Notes under the pieces: model-generated | Databases searched by the model: none | Told to the model about the DNA's origin: nothing | What the model saw: only the letters and a program-made list of their open reading frames with translations | Program-made: the position numbers and the translations under genes | Shown: positions 315 through 27,959 of the stretch, one piece after another | How positions within the stretch are numbered: the first letter of the stretch is position 1 | Layout of the letters: the number at the start of each line of letters is the position of its first letter | Origin: Escherichia phage vB_EcoM_Ozark | Sequence record: NC_054927.1 | DNA: 64,000 nucleotides | Reading direction: 5' to 3' (one strand)

Positions 315-2294
315 ATGACTTTATTATCTCCGGGCATTGAGCTCAAAGAAACTACGGTTCAAAGCACCGTGGTTAATAACTCTACTGGTACAGCAGCTTT
401 GGCCGGTAAATTCCAGTGGGGTCCTGCTTTTCAGATTAAACAGGTTACAAATGAAGTAGATTTAGTTAATACTTTTGGTCAACCAACCGCTGAAACTGCT
501 GACTATTTTATGTCTGCGATGAATTTCTTGCAGTACGGAAATGACTTACGAGTTGTTCGTGCTGTCGATAGAGATACCGCTAAAAACTCATCTCCGATTG
601 CTGGTAATATTGAATACACAATTTCTACCCCAGGTAGTAACTATGCGGTTGGAGATAAAATCACGGTCAAATATGTTTCAGATGATATTGAAACTGAAGG
701 TAAAATCACCGAAGTAGATGCTGATGGAAAAATCAAGAAAATTAGTATTCCTACTGCAAAAATTATCGCTAAAGCGAAAGAAGTCGGTGAATATCCAACA
801 CTAGGTTCTAACTGGACTGCGGAAATTTCTTCGTCTTCCTCTGGTTTAGCTGCAGTAATAACTCTTGGAAAAATTATTACTGATTCTGGTATTTTATTAG
901 CTGAAATTGAAAATGCTGAAGCTGCTATAACAGCAGTTGACTTTCAAGCAAATCTCGAAAAATACGGAATTCCAGGAGTAGTAGCTCTTTATCCAGGCGA
1001 ATTAGGCGATAAAATTGAAATTGAAATCGTATCTAAAGCTGACTATGCAAAAGGAGCTTCTGCATTACTCCCAATTTATCCAGGTGGTGGTACTCGTGCA
1101 TCTACTGCCAAAGCAGTGTTTGGATATGGACCGCAAACTGATTCACAGTACGCTATTATAGTTCGTCGTAATGATGCTATTGTTCAAAGCGTTGTTCTTT
1201 CAACTAAGCGTGGTGAAAAAGATATTTACGATAGTAACATCTATATCGATGACTTTTTCGCAAAAGGTGGTTCAGAATATATTTTTGCAACTGCACAAAA
1301 CTGGCCAGAAGGCTTCTCTGGAATTTTAACTCTGTCTGGTGGATTATCATCAAATGCTGAAGTAACAGCAGGAGATTTGATGGAAGCTTGGGACTTCTTT
1401 GCTGACCGTGAATCTGTTGACGTTCAACTGTTTATTGCGGGTTCTTGTGCCGGTGAATCTTTAGAAACAGCATCTACTGTCCAAAAACATGTTGTTTCAA
1501 TCGGGGATGCTCGTCAAGATTGCTTAGTATTGTGCTCTCCTCCGCGTGAAACTGTAGTTGGAATTCCTGTAACTCGTGCTGTTGATAACTTAGTCAATTG
1601 GAGAACTGCGGCAGGTTCATACACTGATAATAACTTTAATATCAGTTCAACCTATGCAGCAATCGACGGCAACTACAAATATCAGTATGACAAATATAAT
1701 GATGTGAATCGTTGGGTTCCATTAGCAGCTGATATTGCTGGTTTATGCGCAAGAACTGATAACGTTTCTCAAACTTGGATGTCTCCAGCTGGTTATAATC
1801 GTGGCCAGATTCTTAACGTTATTAAACTTGCTATTGAAACTCGCCAAGCTCAGCGCGACCGTTTATACCAAGAAGCTATTAACCCGGTAACTGGTACAGG
1901 TGGCGATGGTTACGTATTGTATGGTGATAAAACAGCTACTTCTGTTCCTTCTCCGTTTGATCGTATTAACGTTCGTCGTCTGTTTAATATGTTGAAAACG
2001 AATATCGGACGTAGTTCAAAATATCGTTTGTTCGAATTAAACAACGCGTTTACTCGTTCATCATTCCGCACAGAAACTGCCCAGTACTTACAGGGAATTA
2101 AAGCTCTCGGTGGAATTTATGAATATCGTGTAGTTTGCGATACAACAAATAACACTCCGTCAGTAATTGATAGAAATGAGTTTGTTGCAACATTCTACAT
2201 CCAACCTGCGCGCAGTATAAATTATATTACTTTGAATTTCGTCGCAACTGCTACTGGTGCAGACTTCGATGAGTTAACTGGTCTTGCAGGTTAA
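315..2294 (+). CDS. 18: tail sheath protein
   Basis: 659-aa ORF starting MTLLSPGIELK, ATG preceded by AGAGGA; length and position match T4 gp18. Confidence 0.93.
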   Translation: MTLLSPGIELKETTVQSTVVNNSTGTAALAGKFQWGPAFQIKQVTNEVDLVNTFGQPTAETADYFMSAMNFLQYGNDLRVVRAVDRDTAKNSSPIAGNIEYTISTPGSNYAVGDKITVKYVSDDIETEGKITEVDADGKIKKISIPTAKIIAKAKEVGEYPTLGSNWTAEISSSSSGLAAVITLGKIITDSGILLAEIENAEAAITAVDFQANLEKYGIPGVVALYPGELGDKIEIEIVSKADYAKGASALLPIYPGGGTRASTAKAVFGYGPQTDSQYAIIVRRNDAIVQSVVLSTKRGEKDIYDSNIYIDDFFAKGGSEYIFATAQNWPEGFSGILTLSGGLSSNAEVTAGDLMEAWDFFADRESVDVQLFIAGSCAGESLETASTVQKHVVSIGDARQDCLVLCSPPRETVVGIPVTRAVDNLVNWRTAAGSYTDNNFNISSTYAAIDGNYKYQYDKYNDVNRWVPLAADIAGLCARTDNVSQTWMSPAGYNRGQILNVIKLAIETRQAQRDRLYQEAINPVTGTGGDGYVLYGDKTATSVPSPFDRINVRRLFNMLKTNIGRSSKYRLFELNNAFTRSSFRTETAQYLQGIKALGGIYEYRVVCDTTNNTPSVIDRNEFVATFYIQPARSINYITLNFVATATGADFDELTGLAG

Positions 2295-2310
2295 TACGGT
2301 GCATTCTAAA

Positions 2311-2328
2311 GGCCTGTTTCGGCAGGCC
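2311..2328 (+). terminator. stem-loop downstream of gene 18
   Basis: GGCCUG-UUUCGG-CAGGCC inverted repeat directly after the gene 18 stop. Confidence 0.4.
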
Positions 2329-2388
2329 ATATAAATACACTATATCCTTAATTCTTTAATTCTATATGCCCTAGGTTAAACATAGGGA

Positions 2389-2396
2389 TATAAATA
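2389..2396 (+). promoter_or_regulatory. late promoter motif upstream of gene 19
   Basis: Exact TATAAATA 15 nt upstream of the gene 19 ATG; a second copy lies at 2330-2337. Confidence 0.55.
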
Positions 2397-2410
2397 CTAC
2401 AGAGGCTAAT

Positions 2411-2902
2411 ATGTTTGTAGATGATGTAACACGAGCGTTTGAATCTGGTGATTTTGCTCGACCTAACTTATTCCAAGTAGAAATTTCTTATCTTGGACAA
2501 AATTTTACGTTCCAATGTAAAGCTACTGCTCTACCAGCTGGTATTGTAGAAAAAATTCCAGTCGGATTTATGAACCGTAAAATTAACGTAGCAGGCGATC
2601 GTACATTCGATGACTGGACTGTTACAGTAATGAACGATGAAGCTCATGATGCTCGCCAGAAGTTCGTTGATTGGCAAAGCATTGCTGCGGGGCAAGGAAA
2701 CGAAATTACTGGTGGAAAACCTGCAGAGTATAAAAAGAGCGCTATTGTTCGCCAATATGCTCGTGACGCTAAAACAGTAACAAAAGAAATTGAAATTAAA
2801 GGCTTGTGGCCTACTAACGTGGGTGAACTTCAATTAGATTGGGATTCAAACAATGAAATCCAAACCTTTGAAGTAACTCTTGCTCTCGATTATTGGGAAT
2901 AA
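2411..2902 (+). CDS. 19: tail tube protein
   Basis: 163-aa ORF starting MFVDDVTRAFESGDF; size and position as T4 gp19. Confidence 0.93.
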   Translation: MFVDDVTRAFESGDFARPNLFQVEISYLGQNFTFQCKATALPAGIVEKIPVGFMNRKINVAGDRTFDDWTVTVMNDEAHDARQKFVDWQSIAAGQGNEITGGKPAEYKKSAIVRQYARDAKTVTKEIEIKGLWPTNVGELQLDWDSNNEIQTFEVTLALDYWE

Positions 2903-2934
2903 AATGAATGGGGAGAAATCCCCATCCTGCTTAA

Positions 2935-4559
<1,625 letters not shown>

Positions 4560-4560
<1 letters not shown>

Positions 4561-4808
4561 TGGAAGGTTTAATTGAAGCTATTAAATCAAACGACCTCGT
4601 AGCCGCTCGTAAATTATTTGCTGAAGCCATGGCTGCAAGAACGATTGATTTAATTAAAGAAGAAAAAATCGCTATCGCTCGTAATTTCTTAATCGAAGGT
4701 GAAGAACCTGAAGACGAGGATGAAGATGATGACGAAGATAGCGATGATAAAGACGACAAAAAAGACAAAGACTCTGACGAAGATGACGAAGACGAGGATG
4801 ATGAATAA
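4560..4808 (+). CDS. 67: prohead core protein with highly acidic C-terminus
   Basis: 82-codon ORF overlapping the gene 20 stop (TAATG); Asp/Glu-rich tail; position as T4 gene 67. Confidence 0.75.
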
Positions 4809-5233
4809 TGCTTCTGATCCCTGAAACTCATGAATTAGTTCTCGAGAATGTCGAAGCACTTATTCCTGAAGCACAGGGTCGCTTTGACGAATTGTCTTCT
4901 GCTTTAAATAAAGACGATATAAATACAATTGTCGAGAATATGCTTGATGATGAAACTGATTTAGCGGTTGCATTAGCTTCTATTAATGAAAATATGCCGT
5001 TAAATGAATTTATCGTTAAACATGTTTCTGCCCGTGGTGAAATTACTCGCACTAAAGATCGCAAAACGCGTGAACGTAATGCATTTCAAACCACTGGGCT
5101 GTCTAAAGCAAAACGTAGACAAATTGCTCGTAAAGCTACCAAAACGAAGATTGCCAATCCAGCAGGTCAATCTCGTGCTCAGCGTAAGCGTAAAAAAGCT
5201 CTTAAACGCCGTAAAGCATTAGGATTAAGCTAA
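4808..5233 (+). CDS. 68: prohead core protein
   Basis: 141-aa ORF translationally coupled (TAATG) between genes 67 and 21. Confidence 0.75.
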
Positions 5234-5871
5234 TGAATGAACCCCAATTACTAATTGAAACTTGGGGTCAACCTGGCGAAATTATTGATGGTGTGCCAAT
5301 GCTCGAATCCCACGATGGAAAAGACTTAGGTTTAAAACCGGGTTTATACATCGAAGGAATATTCATGCAAGCGGAAGTCGTCAATAGAAATAAACGTCTT
5401 TATCCAAAACGCATATTAGAAAAAGCGGTAAAAGACTATATTAATGAGCAAGTTTTAACTAAACAAGCTCTCGGAGAATTAAATCATCCTCCACGCGCTA
5501 ATGTTGACCCAATGCAAGCCGCTATCATTATAGAAGATATGTGGTGGAAAGGAAATGACGTATACGGACGAGCTCGTGTTATTGAAGGTGACCACGGTCC
5601 TGGAGATAAATTAGCAGCTAATATTCGTGCCGGATGGATTCCAGGAGTTTCTTCTCGTGGATTAGGTTCATTGACTGACACAAATAAAGGTTATCGTATC
5701 GTAAACGAAGGATTCAAATTAACTGTAGGTGTTGATGCAGTATGGGGTCCAAGTGCTCCAGATGCATGGGTAACTCCTAAGGAAATTACCGAATCACAGA
5801 CGGCGGAAGCCGATACAAGTGCCGATGACGCCTATATGGCTCTCGCAGAGGCCATGAAAAAAGCGTTATAA
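5233..5871 (+). CDS. 21: prohead core protease
   Basis: 212-aa ORF; size and position as T4 gp21. Confidence 0.88.
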   Translation: MNEPQLLIETWGQPGEIIDGVPMLESHDGKDLGLKPGLYIEGIFMQAEVVNRNKRLYPKRILEKAVKDYINEQVLTKQALGELNHPPRANVDPMQAAIIIEDMWWKGNDVYGRARVIEGDHGPGDKLAANIRAGWIPGVSSRGLGSLTDTNKGYRIVNEGFKLTVGVDAVWGPSAPDAWVTPKEITESQTAEADTSADDAYMALAEAMKKAL

Positions 5872-23184: not shown

Positions 23185-23188
23185 CAAT

Positions 23189-23206
23189 GGGGACCGAAAG
23201 GTCCCC
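23189..23206. terminator. bidirectional terminator between convergent gene 54 and the 96-aa ORF
   Basis: GGGGACC-GAAA-GGUCCCC hairpin flanked by T-run. Confidence 0.65.
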
Positions 23207-23212
23207 ATATTT

Positions 23213-23503
23213 TTATTTACGGAATGAAATAAAAGCAGCAACTGAAGCAACTAAACTGTCTTCAATATAAACTTCAATTTTTACCGGAGCTTCTGACTCA
23301 AATTTACCTGTTACTACACCCTGAAAAATACTTTCAGTCTGTTCTGGCTTTGAAAAATTTTCAGAAGGAAAAATTCCGAACTTTTTATCTGTTCCAAAAA
23401 TTTTAATAAATTCATCGTAAACTGCTTCATTAAAAGCATTATCAGCAGGAATAACGCCTTCAACTACAAGTTCTTGACCTAAAAAGCGCAAAGAAGATTT
23501 CAT
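23213..23503 (-). CDS. hypothetical protein (alt.-3-like position)
   Basis: 96-aa ATG-initiated ORF with GAGGA SD, directly downstream of the conserved leader cassette. Confidence 0.5.
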   Translation of the reverse strand: MKSSLRFLGQELVVEGVIPADNAFNEAVYDEFIKIFGTDKKFGIFPSENFSKPEQTESIFQGVVTGKFESEAPVKIEVYIEDSLVASVAAFISFRK

Positions 23504-23510
23504 TTTGTGT

Positions 23511-23564
23511 TCCTCATGTTATGTCAGTAAGACTACTATAACACAACACGAGAGACTTGTAAAC
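23511..23564 (-). repeat. 54-bp promoter/leader cassette, copy A (52/54 identical to 38729-38782)
   Basis: Minus strand reads GTTTAC then 17-18 nt then TATAGT ... GAGGA; second copy lies upstream of alc. Confidence 0.7.
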
Positions 23565-25621
23565 TACATTTTGAACTTTTTAGACATTCCGTTAATGTTA
23601 ACCAAAGAAGCTAAGATTTGAGAAACTTCGTTTTCCTCTTCTTTTGATTCTTCTACAAGGAATTGATTAAATCCAGTCATTGGACGAACTTCACCAGTTT
23701 CCATTAGATGGTCGCCATCATATACTGATTCCTCTAATTGTTCAGAAGGAGGAACGATTGTACCTTCTATTAGATACTTGTTATAAGCAGTTTCTTTCAT
23801 AAAGTACGTACTTACTTTATTAATCTTCAGTAAAATTCCGCGCGGTAGAATAACTTCAGCTTCTGATGGAAATCCTGATAAATGACCTGGAACGATAACT
23901 TTGATTCGCTCAGCTCCTTTAATTACCATACCCACGCTAGTTTCAGCATCTTCATTAGCATATGTAGAATGACTACCCATATGCATCAAATCTTCTGCAT
24001 CAACGGAACCTTCTCCTTCACCAGAAAATACTGCACCGGAATCATCTAGAGCCATATAGTTTTTACCATGCTCACCGAAGATATTTGGTTTAAGCGATGT
24101 GGATACGAAGTTCTTGAAATAGAACATTTTATTTTCAATGTTATGACGCAAAGTTTTAAAGGTAACTTCTTGTCCACGGTAAAGTGTAGTTCCTGGAGGA
24201 AGAACTGATCCTTTGGCAAAGGCAGAATCCAACGTCTCGATGTGCTTAATAGCTCGTTCCATGTATTCTTCACGGGTAGAATCTGGTTTACCCAAAAGGA
24301 ACGAGTTCATTTCAACATATGAATCTGCACAATAATCTTCAATTACATCAGATTCAGCTTGGGTTAGTCCTTTTGGAGTTACTTCGGTGCTTGCGTATTC
24401 ATATGCCTGAGCAGCAGATTCATTAATCAATTTATAAATGCCATTCATTACAAATTGAATAATAGCTGTCTTTTCATCTGGCGTAGCTTTAGAACCTTTA
24501 ACTAAATCATTAATAATTTTCTTAATAACATCAAAGCTATTAGAAATATTAATGTCAGCAAGATCGCTTAAAATTTTATCAGTTTTATAATCAAAGAATT
24601 CTTTATTCTTTAAATATTCTTGAGAACCTTGATATGTTATATCGCTCTGCAACTTGATGGATGGATCACGTAAACGTGCATGGGCTAATGCAATGTGATT
24701 TCGGAAGTTTTCTAGTTCATAATCGCTAGATTTAAAACGAGAAGCACTCCTCATGCCACCGATAGCTCCTTTGCTGAAGTTTGAACCAATCTGAATAACG
24801 CCAGAGTTCATTGGTCCTTCTGCTTTATATACCGGAACTTTAGATTCAAACTCTTGATATTTCTTAGCAGCGAAGCTATCACCCTGAAGTGAAGCATCAA
24901 CAGTAGAATATTGAGCTTGTGCTGCTAATCGACGACTAATTTTAGTTTTCTGAATAACAGCTTGGTCCGTGCGCTTATCATTTTCTAAAGCAATAGAAGC
25001 AGCAACAGCAACAGCTTTAGGAACAGCATTACCTGTTTTAATGTCTACATAAACATCACCAACCTTCGATTCAACTTTTGTGAATAACTCAGTTGAAATA
25101 GGAGGTACACCTGGAATGTCTTCTAAATTGGCATTTTTACGGTAAACCATAATATATGCATATTTCTTATCATAGTCCCAGATTTCCTTTAAAAGAACAT
25201 ATCGACCTGCTCCTTTAGTACGTACTAAACGGTCAGCAATAACTTGCATTTGACGAGCTGCGCCATTTGTTTTACTTTTTAGTACGCGGAATAGGCATGC
25301 GTCGATTTTATACTGTTTCATTGTTTGAAGAGCAGTATCAAAAACAGCATTAATGACGCCAATTGGATTTCCACCCAAGTTTCTAAGCTTAACCAGTGAT
25401 AATTTCTCGTTGACACCTATCATTACGATATGCATCATTTTATCGCCTGGCTTAACGTTTTTATTTGTATCACCGCCAGAGGTGTATGTACAAAATCTAA
25501 ATCCAGGAAGCACACTTTCTTCACCAGCTTGAATAGCAAAAATTTGTGGTATTTTATGCTTAGGATTTAAGTTAACAACCGGCGCCGAAGCGCCGTCAAA
25601 TAATTCTGTAATAAGTTCCAT
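23564..25621 (-). CDS. Alt-family mono-ADP-ribosyltransferase paralogue
   Basis: 685-aa ORF; N-terminus MELITELFD nearly identical to the adjacent alt; C-terminal YRGQ, STS and EAEV elements fit an R-S-E ART triad. Confidence 0.8.
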   Translation of the reverse strand: MELITELFDGASAPVVNLNPKHKIPQIFAIQAGEESVLPGFRFCTYTSGGDTNKNVKPGDKMMHIVMIGVNEKLSLVKLRNLGGNPIGVINAVFDTALQTMKQYKIDACLFRVLKSKTNGAARQMQVIADRLVRTKGAGRYVLLKEIWDYDKKYAYIMVYRKNANLEDIPGVPPISTELFTKVESKVGDVYVDIKTGNAVPKAVAVAASIALENDKRTDQAVIQKTKISRRLAAQAQYSTVDASLQGDSFAAKKYQEFESKVPVYKAEGPMNSGVIQIGSNFSKGAIGGMRSASRFKSSDYELENFRNHIALAHARLRDPSIKLQSDITYQGSQEYLKNKEFFDYKTDKILSDLADINISNSFDVIKKIINDLVKGSKATPDEKTAIIQFVMNGIYKLINESAAQAYEYASTEVTPKGLTQAESDVIEDYCADSYVEMNSFLLGKPDSTREEYMERAIKHIETLDSAFAKGSVLPPGTTLYRGQEVTFKTLRHNIENKMFYFKNFVSTSLKPNIFGEHGKNYMALDDSGAVFSGEGEGSVDAEDLMHMGSHSTYANEDAETSVGMVIKGAERIKVIVPGHLSGFPSEAEVILPRGILLKINKVSTYFMKETAYNKYLIEGTIVPPSEQLEESVYDGDHLMETGEVRPMTGFNQFLVEESKEEENEVSQILASLVNINGMSKKFKM

Positions 25622-25624
25622 GAT

Positions 25625-27718
25625 TTATCCTTGAACGAACTTGTAAGGCATGTTTGTAATATCTATGCAAGACGCAATAATTCCAAGAGATGATTCTACT
25701 TTCTGTTTAACATTTGATGAAACAAATGATGCAAAGTCAACTCTATCTTCTATTTCAATACCACCAGTCATTGCAACTACTTCGCCGGTTTCCATTAAAC
25801 GGTCTCCGTCATAGATTACCGATTCGGTGAGTTCTTCTGTGGTCATAACTTCAGCTTGAATGAGTTTTGTATTATTAGACGTGGTTCCGTCATTATTAGA
25901 AGCATCAGTTATTTTATTAACTTTAACCATCAATCCGCGCGGTAGAATAACTTCAGCTTCTGTTGCTATTCCGAGACTTCCTGGATATACAACATTAACT
26001 TTATGAGCTCCATCAATTGCCCATCCTATTTGAACTTTAACGTATTCAGGATTTTCTTTATACGCTCTTATTTCGTTTGGATTAATAGTTATTCCTTCTT
26101 CATTTTTATCAACCGTTAATTCGTTACGAGCTTCTGGTTCTAAAAGACCAATACCAGCATGTGTAATTCCAAAACGCCCAAAAATGATAGGAGTTAAAGA
26201 AGTAGATACAAAATTTCTGAAATAGAACACTTTATTTTTAACTAGCGCTTCGTATATAGGAGCAGTCATACTTTGAGCACGATAAACTGTAATGCCTTCC
26301 GGTATGCGGTCACCATTTTCAAAAGCTGAATCTAAATTATTTATAGCAGATTCAATTTCTTTTTCACTCATTACATCATATCGTTCTGGATTGTAACGAC
26401 CTAAAAGAAGATTATTGATGTCAGTATATCCTGAACCACAATACTCTCTAATGCCGCGCTTTTGTGATGGAGTATATTTAGAACCATCACGGGCAATAGT
26501 AATATCAATCATTGGACCTGCACCAATTCCAGAAAAACTATAAATCATTCTTTTGAGGAATTTAGTTTTTGCTGCGTTCCAGGAATTTTTAGTCATTTCT
26601 TCCCAGACTTCATCTTGCTGCCCTTTACGAGTTTTATTATGTTTATCAAGCCAATTATCTTTATATTCTTCAAAGAATTTATTAATAGCTGCTGCGTATT
26701 TCTCTAAACATTTTATTGAAGTAGTTGGTTCATTTTTTATCGCGTTAAAAATTACATCTTTAATTTTTTCGGAAACTTCATTAACCTCACTTTTTGAAAA
26801 GAATTTATAGTCATAGTGAAGTTCATTCGCAGTTCCTTCGGCAATAATTTTTGCTGCCTTAGTTTTAGAAGCTAATGAATTAATTCCAAGCTTCATTTCT
26901 TCTGCTTCGGGAATTAAAGGAGCGGTAGCGGGTTTATTGAAATTAGCTGCGGTAGATTCATACTTCTGAAATAATTCACTTTCAAATCTAGAAGATTCCA
27001 ATGACTGACTTTGTGCAATTGCTCTACGGGAAATTTTAACTTTAACGATTACAGCTTGATCAGAACGTTTATCATTTTCTTGCGCAATAGATGCTGCAAT
27101 TGCCTCATTTTTAGTTACTTGAGCTCCAGTATCTTTATTGATATAAACATCACCGACCTTCGATTCAACTTTAGTAAAGAGCTCGGTACTAATTTCCGGA
27201 ACCCCTGGAATGTCTTCTAGTGATACATTTTTGCGATGTATAAGAATATATGCATACTTTTTATCGTAATCCCAGAGTTCCTTAAGAAGGACGTATCTGC
27301 CACCTGAACGACTACGGATAAGTCTATCAGCAATAACCTGAATTTGTCGAGCTTGACCAGCGGTTTTAGACTTAAGAATACGAAGCATACAGGCATCAAT
27401 TTTATACTGACGCATTGTTTGCATTGCAACAGTAAAAACTGAATTGATATAATTAATTGGGCTTGAACCAAGACCTTTCAATTTAGCAATTGAACCTTTA
27501 GCAGTTAATGTAAAAGGAACAATATGCATCATTTTATCGCCCATCTTTAAATCGCGATTAGTATCACCTCCAGATGTATAGGTACATAAACGAAAGCCTG
27601 GTTGTTCAATTGCGTCATCAACATGAACTGAAAAAATTTGTGGTATTTTCTTCTTTGGATTTAAGTTTGTAATCGGAAGAGTAGTATCTTCGTCAAATAA
27701 TTCTGTAATGAGTTCCAT
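25625..27718 (-). CDS. alt: Alt ADP-ribosyltransferase (packaged internal head protein)
   Basis: 697 aa from the second of two tandem ATGs (GAGAGGA SD); YRAQ, STS and EAEV ART motifs; late promoter upstream. Confidence 0.82.
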   Translation of the reverse strand: MELITELFDEDTTLPITNLNPKKKIPQIFSVHVDDAIEQPGFRLCTYTSGGDTNRDLKMGDKMMHIVPFTLTAKGSIAKLKGLGSSPINYINSVFTVAMQTMRQYKIDACMLRILKSKTAGQARQIQVIADRLIRSRSGGRYVLLKELWDYDKKYAYILIHRKNVSLEDIPGVPEISTELFTKVESKVGDVYINKDTGAQVTKNEAIAASIAQENDKRSDQAVIVKVKISRRAIAQSQSLESSRFESELFQKYESTAANFNKPATAPLIPEAEEMKLGINSLASKTKAAKIIAEGTANELHYDYKFFSKSEVNEVSEKIKDVIFNAIKNEPTTSIKCLEKYAAAINKFFEEYKDNWLDKHNKTRKGQQDEVWEEMTKNSWNAAKTKFLKRMIYSFSGIGAGPMIDITIARDGSKYTPSQKRGIREYCGSGYTDINNLLLGRYNPERYDVMSEKEIESAINNLDSAFENGDRIPEGITVYRAQSMTAPIYEALVKNKVFYFRNFVSTSLTPIIFGRFGITHAGIGLLEPEARNELTVDKNEEGITINPNEIRAYKENPEYVKVQIGWAIDGAHKVNVVYPGSLGIATEAEVILPRGLMVKVNKITDASNNDGTTSNNTKLIQAEVMTTEELTESVIYDGDRLMETGEVVAMTGGIEIEDRVDFASFVSSNVKQKVESSLGIIASCIDITNMPYKFVQG

Positions 27719-27741
27719 CATATCCTCTCTAGTGTTTATTC

Positions 27742-27749
27742 TATTTATA
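27742..27749 (-). promoter_or_regulatory. late promoter motif for alt
   Basis: Plus-strand TATTTATA is minus-strand TATAAATA, 24 nt upstream of the alt ATG. Confidence 0.55.
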
Positions 27750-27756
27750 AAATTAA

Positions 27757-27770
27757 AGGCCCGAAGGCCT
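27757..27770 (-). terminator. tetraloop hairpin upstream of alt
   Basis: AGGCC-UUCG-GGCCU on the minus strand between the 62-aa ORF and alt. Confidence 0.45.
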
Positions 27771-27959
27771 TTAATAATCTATTGGTAAGAGAGTACGATA
27801 TATTTCAAACTTTGGACCTTTTTCATAAGCATCAAAAGTTTCTGTGAATTTATTATAAGCATATGCATCTATAAATTCAATCATGATTTGTGATACAGAA
27901 GTAGAAACATCTCCACCTTCTTTTTGAGCCACGACAATTGTTTCTAAGTAAGCTTTCAT
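27771..27959 (-). CDS. hypothetical small protein downstream of DNA ligase
   Basis: 62-aa ORF whose start overlaps the gene 30 stop. Confidence 0.4.
   Translation of the reverse strand: MKAYLETIVVAQKEGGDVSTSVSQIMIEFIDAYAYNKFTETFDAYEKGPKFEIYRTLLPIDY

Follow-up and report, generated by a model that had tools for sequence, protein, structure and literature searches.

The window, that is, the whole stretch of 64,000 nucleotides (nt) analysed from Escherichia phage vB_EcoM_Ozark (NC_054927.1), carries two adjacent long open reading frames (ORFs) on its minus strand, both coding for ADP-ribosyltransferases (ARTs) of the Alt family. The upstream gene, alt (25625..27718, minus strand), encodes 697 amino acids (aa) and is the Alt orthologue, in the allele of the RB32/T2/T6 type. 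The downstream gene, which is named alt.-2 in phage RB32 and is called the paralogue below (23564..25621, minus strand), is full length with 685 aa. An earlier note, made from the sequence alone, had reported adjacent minus-strand ORFs of 685 and 697 aa, and both were found where it had placed them. The pair is located between DNA ligase (gene 30) and alt.1 on one side and alt.-3 and gene 54 on the other, a conserved position in agreement with membership in the Alt family. In detail, the minus strand carries alt.-3, the two long ORFs, alt.1 and DNA ligase, and the plus strand genes 29, 48 and 54.

In a database comparison, the 4.9-kb region around the pair showed 97–98% nt identity to hundreds of deposited Tequatrovirus genomes. 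The RB32 pair is named alt (YP_803137.1) and alt.-2 (YP_803136.1) in RefSeq, both described as ‘Alt-like RNA polymerase ADP-ribosyltransferase’, and T2 and T6 possess an equivalent pair with equal gene lengths and an equal gap of 3 nt. In RB32, as in T2, T6, PP01 and several hundred Tequatrovirus genomes, the genes, their order, the 3-nt gap and the flanks are all as in the window at the same level of identity; there is no substantive difference from the RB32-type pairs, and the window represents a further isolate of equal kind. Paralogues of alt adjoining this gene had already been described (Nolan et al. 2006, PMC1524935), and the GenBank notes of T4 likewise describe them beside alt. Since the pair is annotated in RB32, present in T2 and T6 and covered by these descriptions, it is already known, and the present finding is a re-discovery. 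The window is a Tequatrovirus, and the locus seems to be the standard alt locus of its T2/T6/RB32-like members. Interest attaches mainly to the downstream enzyme, for which the literature searched holds no functional study.

Two in-frame ATG codons are found at the start of alt. The first (27719..27721) would give a protein of 698 aa (25625..27721) and the second, at 27718, one of 697 aa; the latter is the start used in the annotation of related records. The Shine-Dalgarno sequence of the gene, GAGG, is positioned at 27724..27727 (minus strand).

Alt and the paralogue align over their whole length with 41% identity (BLASTP, E = 8e-163), and this identity is unevenly distributed, with 68% at aa 1–238, 20% at aa 239–415, 36% at aa 416–622 and 41% at aa 623–685. 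The segments listed in the earlier note were recovered in both proteins. The near-identical N-terminal motifs MELITELFD, NLNPK.KIPQIF and CTYTSGGDTN are shared, the central regions diverge (20% against the 68% of the N-terminus), and the C-terminal segments are found as YRAQ from aa 479 in Alt and YRGQ from aa 481 in the paralogue, FVSTSL from aa 503 and 505, respectively, and EAEVILPRG from aa 587 in both.

A three-part architecture describes the two proteins, that is, a family-specific N-terminal domain (N-domain) of about 240 aa after a short propeptide ending in L/I-x-E, a variable helical centre, and an ART domain of the C3/VIP2 type followed by a tail which is conserved and probably disordered. 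In Alt, the N-domain (aa 1–238) is encoded at 27005..27718, with the putative prohead-protease site I-T-E at aa 4–6, the ART domain (aa 378–627) at 25838..26587 (Pfam PF03496, E = 2.1e-37) and the tail at 25628..25837, all on the minus strand. The respective regions of the paralogue, on the same strand, are the N-domain (aa 1–238, 24908..25621), with I-T-E also at aa 4–6 and a match to Pfam PF26846 (Tevenvirinae_ADPRT) on near-identical orthologues, the ART domain (aa 416–622, 23756..24376; PF03496, E = 5.8e-20) and the tail (aa 623–685, 23567..23755), which is the counterpart of the Alt tail and was modelled with low confidence. The PF26846 matches are precomputed and refer to orthologues of 98% identity.

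The assignment of both proteins to the ARTs is strongly supported by family profiles. The PF03496 model (ADPrib_exo_Tox) scored 128.8 bits for Alt and 71.9 bits for the paralogue against a cut-off of 23.4, and PHROG 802 matched the full length of both, at residues 1–696 of Alt (E = 5e-272) and 1–685 of the paralogue (E = 5e-256); NCBIfam gave no model for either protein. The catalytic motifs occur in the expected order, as R480, S505-T-S507 and E587-x-E589 in Alt and as R482, S507-T-S509 and E587-x-E589 in the paralogue. Their codons, checked by translation, are located on the minus strand at 26279..26281 (R480), 26204..26206 (S505), 25958..25960 (E587) and 25952..25954 (E589) in alt, and at 24176..24178 (R482), 24101..24103 (S507), 23861..23863 (E587) and 23855..23857 (E589) in the paralogue. 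Paralogue residues R482, S507, S509, E587 and E589 are invariant in an alignment of 21 homologues, and in 58 diverse representatives of the family, where the mean column identity is 25%, the conservation of the same five is 90% or more. The R-S-E triad suggested earlier for the two proteins is therefore upheld by the PF03496 and PHROG 802 matches together with intact R, S-T-S and E-x-E; the specific question of whether one copy had lost its catalytic residues was looked at, and they are intact in both.

Fold modelling covered the paralogue. The AlphaFold2 (AF2) model, with a mean predicted local distance difference test score (pLDDT) of 75, gave Foldseek probabilities of 1.00 to Vis, C3, CDTa, VIP2 and iota-like toxins, and the target template modelling scores (TM-scores) were 0.58–0.74 for single-domain ART targets such as Vis, C3 and Lmo0066. 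The model thus predicts an ART fold for the paralogue. A single-sequence search of the paralogue against the PDB sequences found no match, and the toxins were reached only by the family profile, which placed YR/STS/(Q/E)xE in register with R, STS and QxE of Certhrax and also matched C3, VIP2, iota Ia, ExoS and Vis. The fold and the R / STS / (Q/E)xE layout are shared with the C3-like and binary-toxin ARTs (Vis, C3bot, Certhrax, VIP2, iota Ia and CDTa). On the other hand, identity to these is just 15–20%, STS and ExE of the phage proteins are parted by a long insertion, and a phage-specific N-domain stands where the toxins carry a delivery domain.

By analogy, the E-x-E motif predicts arginine specificity for both proteins. 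ModA and ModB, with about 200 aa each, are small early proteins and are not known to be packaged. These two T4 enzymes are placed with Alt in one R-S-E Alt/VIP2 clade of phage ARTs (PMC5512222). ADP-ribosylation of RNA polymerase alpha and of other host proteins by T4 Alt is known from the literature, and a T4 Alt variant, reported as E577A, has no catalytic activity (PMC11404850). Because T4 also has the double ATG start and the count can be taken from the first ATG, E577 presumably corresponds to the second Glu of E-x-E.

The tail of the paralogue, despite its low model confidence, holds invariant residues, namely YDGDxLMETGE and the final KF. An L-x-E at aa 629–631 of the tail is conserved in 53 of the 58 family members and might serve as a further protease site or in docking.

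The paralogue seems to be a maintained gene. The ratio of nonsynonymous to synonymous divergence (dN/dS) is 0.013 against RB32, 0.064 against FL34 and 0.049 against PP01, with low values in each of the three protein regions. The C-terminal 446 aa are present at 95% identity or more in about 400 phage records, and the Dhakavirus phage dhaeg has the same tandem layout and 3-nt gap with a diverged copy of the paralogue (about 51% identity). Because of the low dN/dS, the abundance of near-identical records and this positional orthologue with the same gap, the paralogue looks functional; it is under strong purifying selection. That the downstream ORF is a decaying duplicate without function could be thought of from T4, in which the same gene is broken. 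In the window, however, the 685-aa ORF and its catalytic residues are intact, and the dN/dS of 0.013–0.064, with the roughly 400 records at 95% identity or more and the Dhakavirus orthologue, effectively refutes decay and leaves it only a negligible chance.

The T4 genes alt.-1 (NP_049810.1) and alt.-2 (NP_049809.1), whose homology the earlier note had suggested checking, proved to be what is left of the downstream gene. At the nt level they match the opening 357 nt and the last few nt of the paralogue with 96–97.5% identity. In comparison with the window, T4 has lost 1 nt from an A-run near codon 55, which causes a frameshift, as well as a segment of 1,699 bp, and it retains only N-domain fragments of the paralogue. 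By this alignment, T4 alt.-1 and alt.-2 are a deletion remnant and not a partial duplication. Two copies of the 9-bp direct repeat CTAAAAAGT are positioned on the minus strand at the left edge (25274..25282) and the right edge (23575..23583) of the T4-type deletion, and they are the exact end points of the deletion which created T4 alt.-2. Of 497 records, 91 contain a 141-nt junction probe without interruption; on this basis, about one-fifth of the relatives would share the T4 deletion and about four-fifths would keep an intact paralogue.

The comparison with T4 Alt (NP_049811.1), which the earlier note had proposed, was run and showed an orthologue of window alt with identical promoter, hairpin and double ATG. 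Identity is high at both ends, 99% in the N-domain (aa 1–238) and 93% in the C-terminal tail, but falls to 31% in the central region and 66% in the ART domain, and the effector part of T4 is thus a deeply diverged allele. Between the two genes (window 25625..27718, T4 locus L002 6458..8503), synonymous divergence (dS) rises from 0.11 in the N-domain to 1.26 in the centre. To judge from this alignment, Alt is a mosaic relative to T4. The effector part of window Alt is closer to the Dhakavirus copy (64% in the centre, 83% in the ART domain) than to T4 Alt. This makes the T4 effector a third, deeply diverged allele, and at least three deep effector lineages exist at the locus.

The two copies show opposite patterns in their N-domains and effector parts. 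Within one genome, the N-domains of the two copies are 66–68% identical, in the window (27005..27718 and 24908..25621) as well as in dhaeg (locus L005, genes 1169..3226 and 3233..5353), and positional orthologues from the two genera share 46–47%. On the contrary, in the centre and the ART domain the positional orthologues are 45–83% identical and the paralogues just 12–39%. Because the effector parts match their positional orthologues better than their neighbours, the duplication predates the split of Tequatrovirus and Dhakavirus. The N-domains would have been homogenised by gene conversion, or co-adapted to a shared phage partner, as the effector parts stayed distinct.

Recombination at the locus is also indicated by three assembled metagenome/Sequence Read Archive (SRA) contigs from independent samples (L006, 4001..6055; L007, 4001..6061; L008, 4001..6061). 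The source data are SRR24155011, SRR19633722 and ERZ27282683. In each, a single gene with the Alt N-terminus and the alt.-2 remainder lies between alt.1 and alt.-3, and the crossovers differ, at nt 150–159, 546–564 and 657–660. These chimeras may be natural variants of unequal crossover that lost the Alt effector part, and they would indicate that the N-domains are exchangeable. No complete isolate genome with a single chimeric gene was found, all 25 top records being in the two-gene state. Collapse during assembly was considered as the source of the chimeras and judged unlikely, because the longest exact match between the N-domain coding regions of the window is 20 nt, shorter than the usual k-mers of assemblers.

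The same comparisons bear on the idea that the paralogue is a redundant back-up acting on the targets of Alt, for instance Arg265 of RNA polymerase alpha. Both enzymes have the E-x-E typical of arginine-specific ARTs, T4 has lost the paralogue, and in some contigs it is apparently the Alt effector part that has gone, all of which would suit redundancy. However, the effector parts of the two proteins are just 20% (centre) and 36% (ART domain) identical, each of them resembles the positional orthologue from another genus (45–83%) more than its neighbour (12–39%), and each is under purifying selection. In addition, even alleles of Alt itself are not interchangeable against the Mokosh type I defence (preprint 10.1101/2025.11.20.689424). 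Redundancy is thus quite improbable.

Regarding transcription, a late promoter motif of the T4 type, TATAAATA, is located at 27742..27749 (minus strand), 21 nt upstream of the first ATG of alt. T4 and four other relatives have the identical motif with the same surroundings, and T4 alt is a late gene by experiment (PMC9697503). Directly before this motif and directly after the alt.1 stop codon there is a hairpin, AAAGGCC-TTCG-GGCCTTT (27755..27772, minus strand). Its sequence is identical in T4, RB32, FL34, PP01 and the chimeric contigs L006 and L008, and a terminator is annotated at the equivalent position of the closest record, MK373786. The hairpin is probably a terminator which parts the upstream transcripts from the late unit of alt.

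The two genes are closely linked. The junction (25622..25632, minus strand) reads TAA-atc-ATG, with the alt stop codon at 25625..25627 and the spacer at 25622..25624 directly before the paralogue ATG, so that the gap of 3 nt was correctly noted earlier; the same gap occurs in RB32, FL34, PP01, T2, T6 and phage dhaeg. A Shine-Dalgarno sequence of the paralogue, AAGGA (25628..25632, minus strand), overlaps the end of alt and lies 6 nt before the paralogue ATG. On the coding strand, the first terminator-like site after the late promoter of alt is a bidirectional hairpin between alt.-3 and gene 54 (23187..23208), annotated as a terminator in MK373786. Because no such site interrupts the coding strand from the promoter to this hairpin, co-transcription of the pair is plausible. 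The late co-transcription proposed in the earlier note therefore stands as regards the late motif, shared with T4 alt, and the uninterrupted stretch up to 23187..23208, and co-transcription itself keeps the rank of a plausible interpretation.

The single late-promoter motif of that proposal holds for the intergenic region (27742..27749), but a second, non-conserved TATAAATA is found inside alt (26338..26345, minus strand), in codons A-I-N-N and 717 nt upstream of the paralogue start. The window, RB32 and FL34 share it, but PP01 and T4 lack it. Little more than the octamer is required of a late promoter in T4, and the internal copy is an exact match on the coding strand; it could act as an internal late promoter and give the paralogue an additional late transcript, which would be compatible with the explanation preferred below. 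Its lack of conservation in PP01 and T4 speaks against such a role, the residues it encodes may make it incidental, and with 22 matches of TATAAATA in the window against 8.7 expected some chance occurrences are likely. The internal motif is probably incidental, and an additional transcript from it is doubtful, though a possibility to be reckoned with.

A scan of the locus found no middle promoters with a MotA box. Sites of the sigma-70 type inside the genes were rejected as candidates, being at chance level (19 found against 19.7 expected).

The prohead protease gp21 cleaves after L/I-x-E. Both proteins have I-T-E at aa 4–6. Among 58 diverse family members, 53 have kept an [LIVM]-x-E with (V/L)FD behind it, and the leader before this motif varies in length. 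A search with the N-domain retrieved 69 protein clusters out of 1.84 billion, in every case at the extreme N-terminus, and it returned Alt-like proteins only. Of the 58 sequences in the set built from these clusters, 56 have an ART domain. For the paralogue N-domain, the AF2 model reached a pLDDT of 83 and found no convincing match among the PDB folds. In T4, small N-terminal peptides are removed from gpAlt by gp21 (T4 head review, PMC9958956). Because L/I-x-E is conserved, the N-domain is almost confined to ART proteins and gp21 trims gpAlt, the sequences are in keeping with a role of the shared N-terminus in packaging and processing. A similar organisation, with an N-terminal virion-association module and a C-terminal effector entering the host together with the DNA, is known from the MuF-fused head-packaged ARTs and the polyvalent proteins of other phages (PMC9503650, PMC5512222).

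The paralogue could also be an active late ART which is not packaged and works inside the cell that produces it. Such an intracellular role would also suit a late transcription unit, and packaging of the paralogue is so far a prediction. Nevertheless, it has kept the full Alt-type N-domain (68% identical) with I-T-E, this domain is almost confined to Alt-like proteins, and chimeras exist in which an Alt N-domain is joined to the paralogue effector part. A non-packaged enzyme is thus unlikely.

The preferred explanation, to which a probability of roughly 0.8 is given, is that of a standard alt locus with two ARTs which form a late unit and are packaged, injected and directed to different targets. 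Late transcription directed by gp55 would start at TATAAATA upstream of alt, and the transcript would run through alt, the paralogue and alt.-3 to the hairpin at 23187..23208. The paralogue would be translated from its own Shine-Dalgarno sequence overlapping the alt stop codon. Both proteins would be built into the prohead core by means of their shared N-terminal part, and the gp21 protease would trim them after Glu6. At the next infection both would be injected with the DNA, and each would ADP-ribosylate arginines on its own set of host proteins; different host targets are proposed because the effector modules are only 20–36% identical. For the paralogue, we infer co-transcription, packaging, cleavage, injection and distinct targets. 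The more specific proposal that the 685-aa protein is a second head-packaged, injected arginine ART with substrates unlike those of Alt, possibly an anti-defence effector, is tentative, its chances falling slightly short of even.

Some points weigh against this explanation. The internal TATAAATA (26338..26345) could supply the paralogue with a late transcript of its own. The chimeric contigs are automated assemblies, and the complete isolate genomes listed include no chimera. The paralogue is missing from T4 and 90 other records and is therefore dispensable on at least some hosts. Searches for paralogue function, a virion proteome or any study of this protein returned nothing relevant in the literature searched, and PMC12373910 does not mention Alt.

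Alt is a textbook case of a phage enzyme which enters the host together with the injected DNA and reprogrammes it. It has been linked to escape from defence, in relation to MazF and, in an allele-specific manner, to Mokosh type I; T4 Alt helps to evade the latter and Alt of the related phage Bas37 cannot substitute for it (preprint 10.1101/2025.11.20.689424, which makes no statement on the paralogue). Because Bas37 Alt fails to replace T4 Alt, differences between Alt effector modules matter. If the tentative proposal of a second injected ART is true, the alt locus would be a modular delivery system, in which the N-domain tracks the phage’s own head and interchangeable effector modules of at least three lineages (Alt of the RB32/T2/T6 type, Alt of the T4 type and the alt.-2 type) are shuffled or lost by recombination. 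Most T-even phages, T2 and T6 included, keep the second, well-conserved Alt-type enzyme that T4 lost, and the paralogue has perhaps escaped study since the model phage T4 has a deleted remnant only. Knowledge of its substrates would enlarge the set of injected phage effectors, and the paralogue might explain differences in host range or defence escape between T4 and its relatives.

The gene downstream of the pair, alt.-3 (23213..23503, minus strand), encodes 96 aa with a DUF5498 domain. It has its own promoter-like site of the early sigma-70 type (23535..23563, minus strand; TTTACA-17 nt-TATAGT, with TG before the second hexamer), which directly follows the stop codon of the paralogue. In T4, mutants with a C-terminal extension of Alt.-3 escape the CmdTAC defence system (PMC11618068). 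On the other side of the pair, alt.1 (27771..27959, minus strand) encodes 62 aa matching Pfam PF24647 (‘Phage blade protein’, E = 7.5e-29), and it overlaps the stop codon of the ligase gene by 4 nt.

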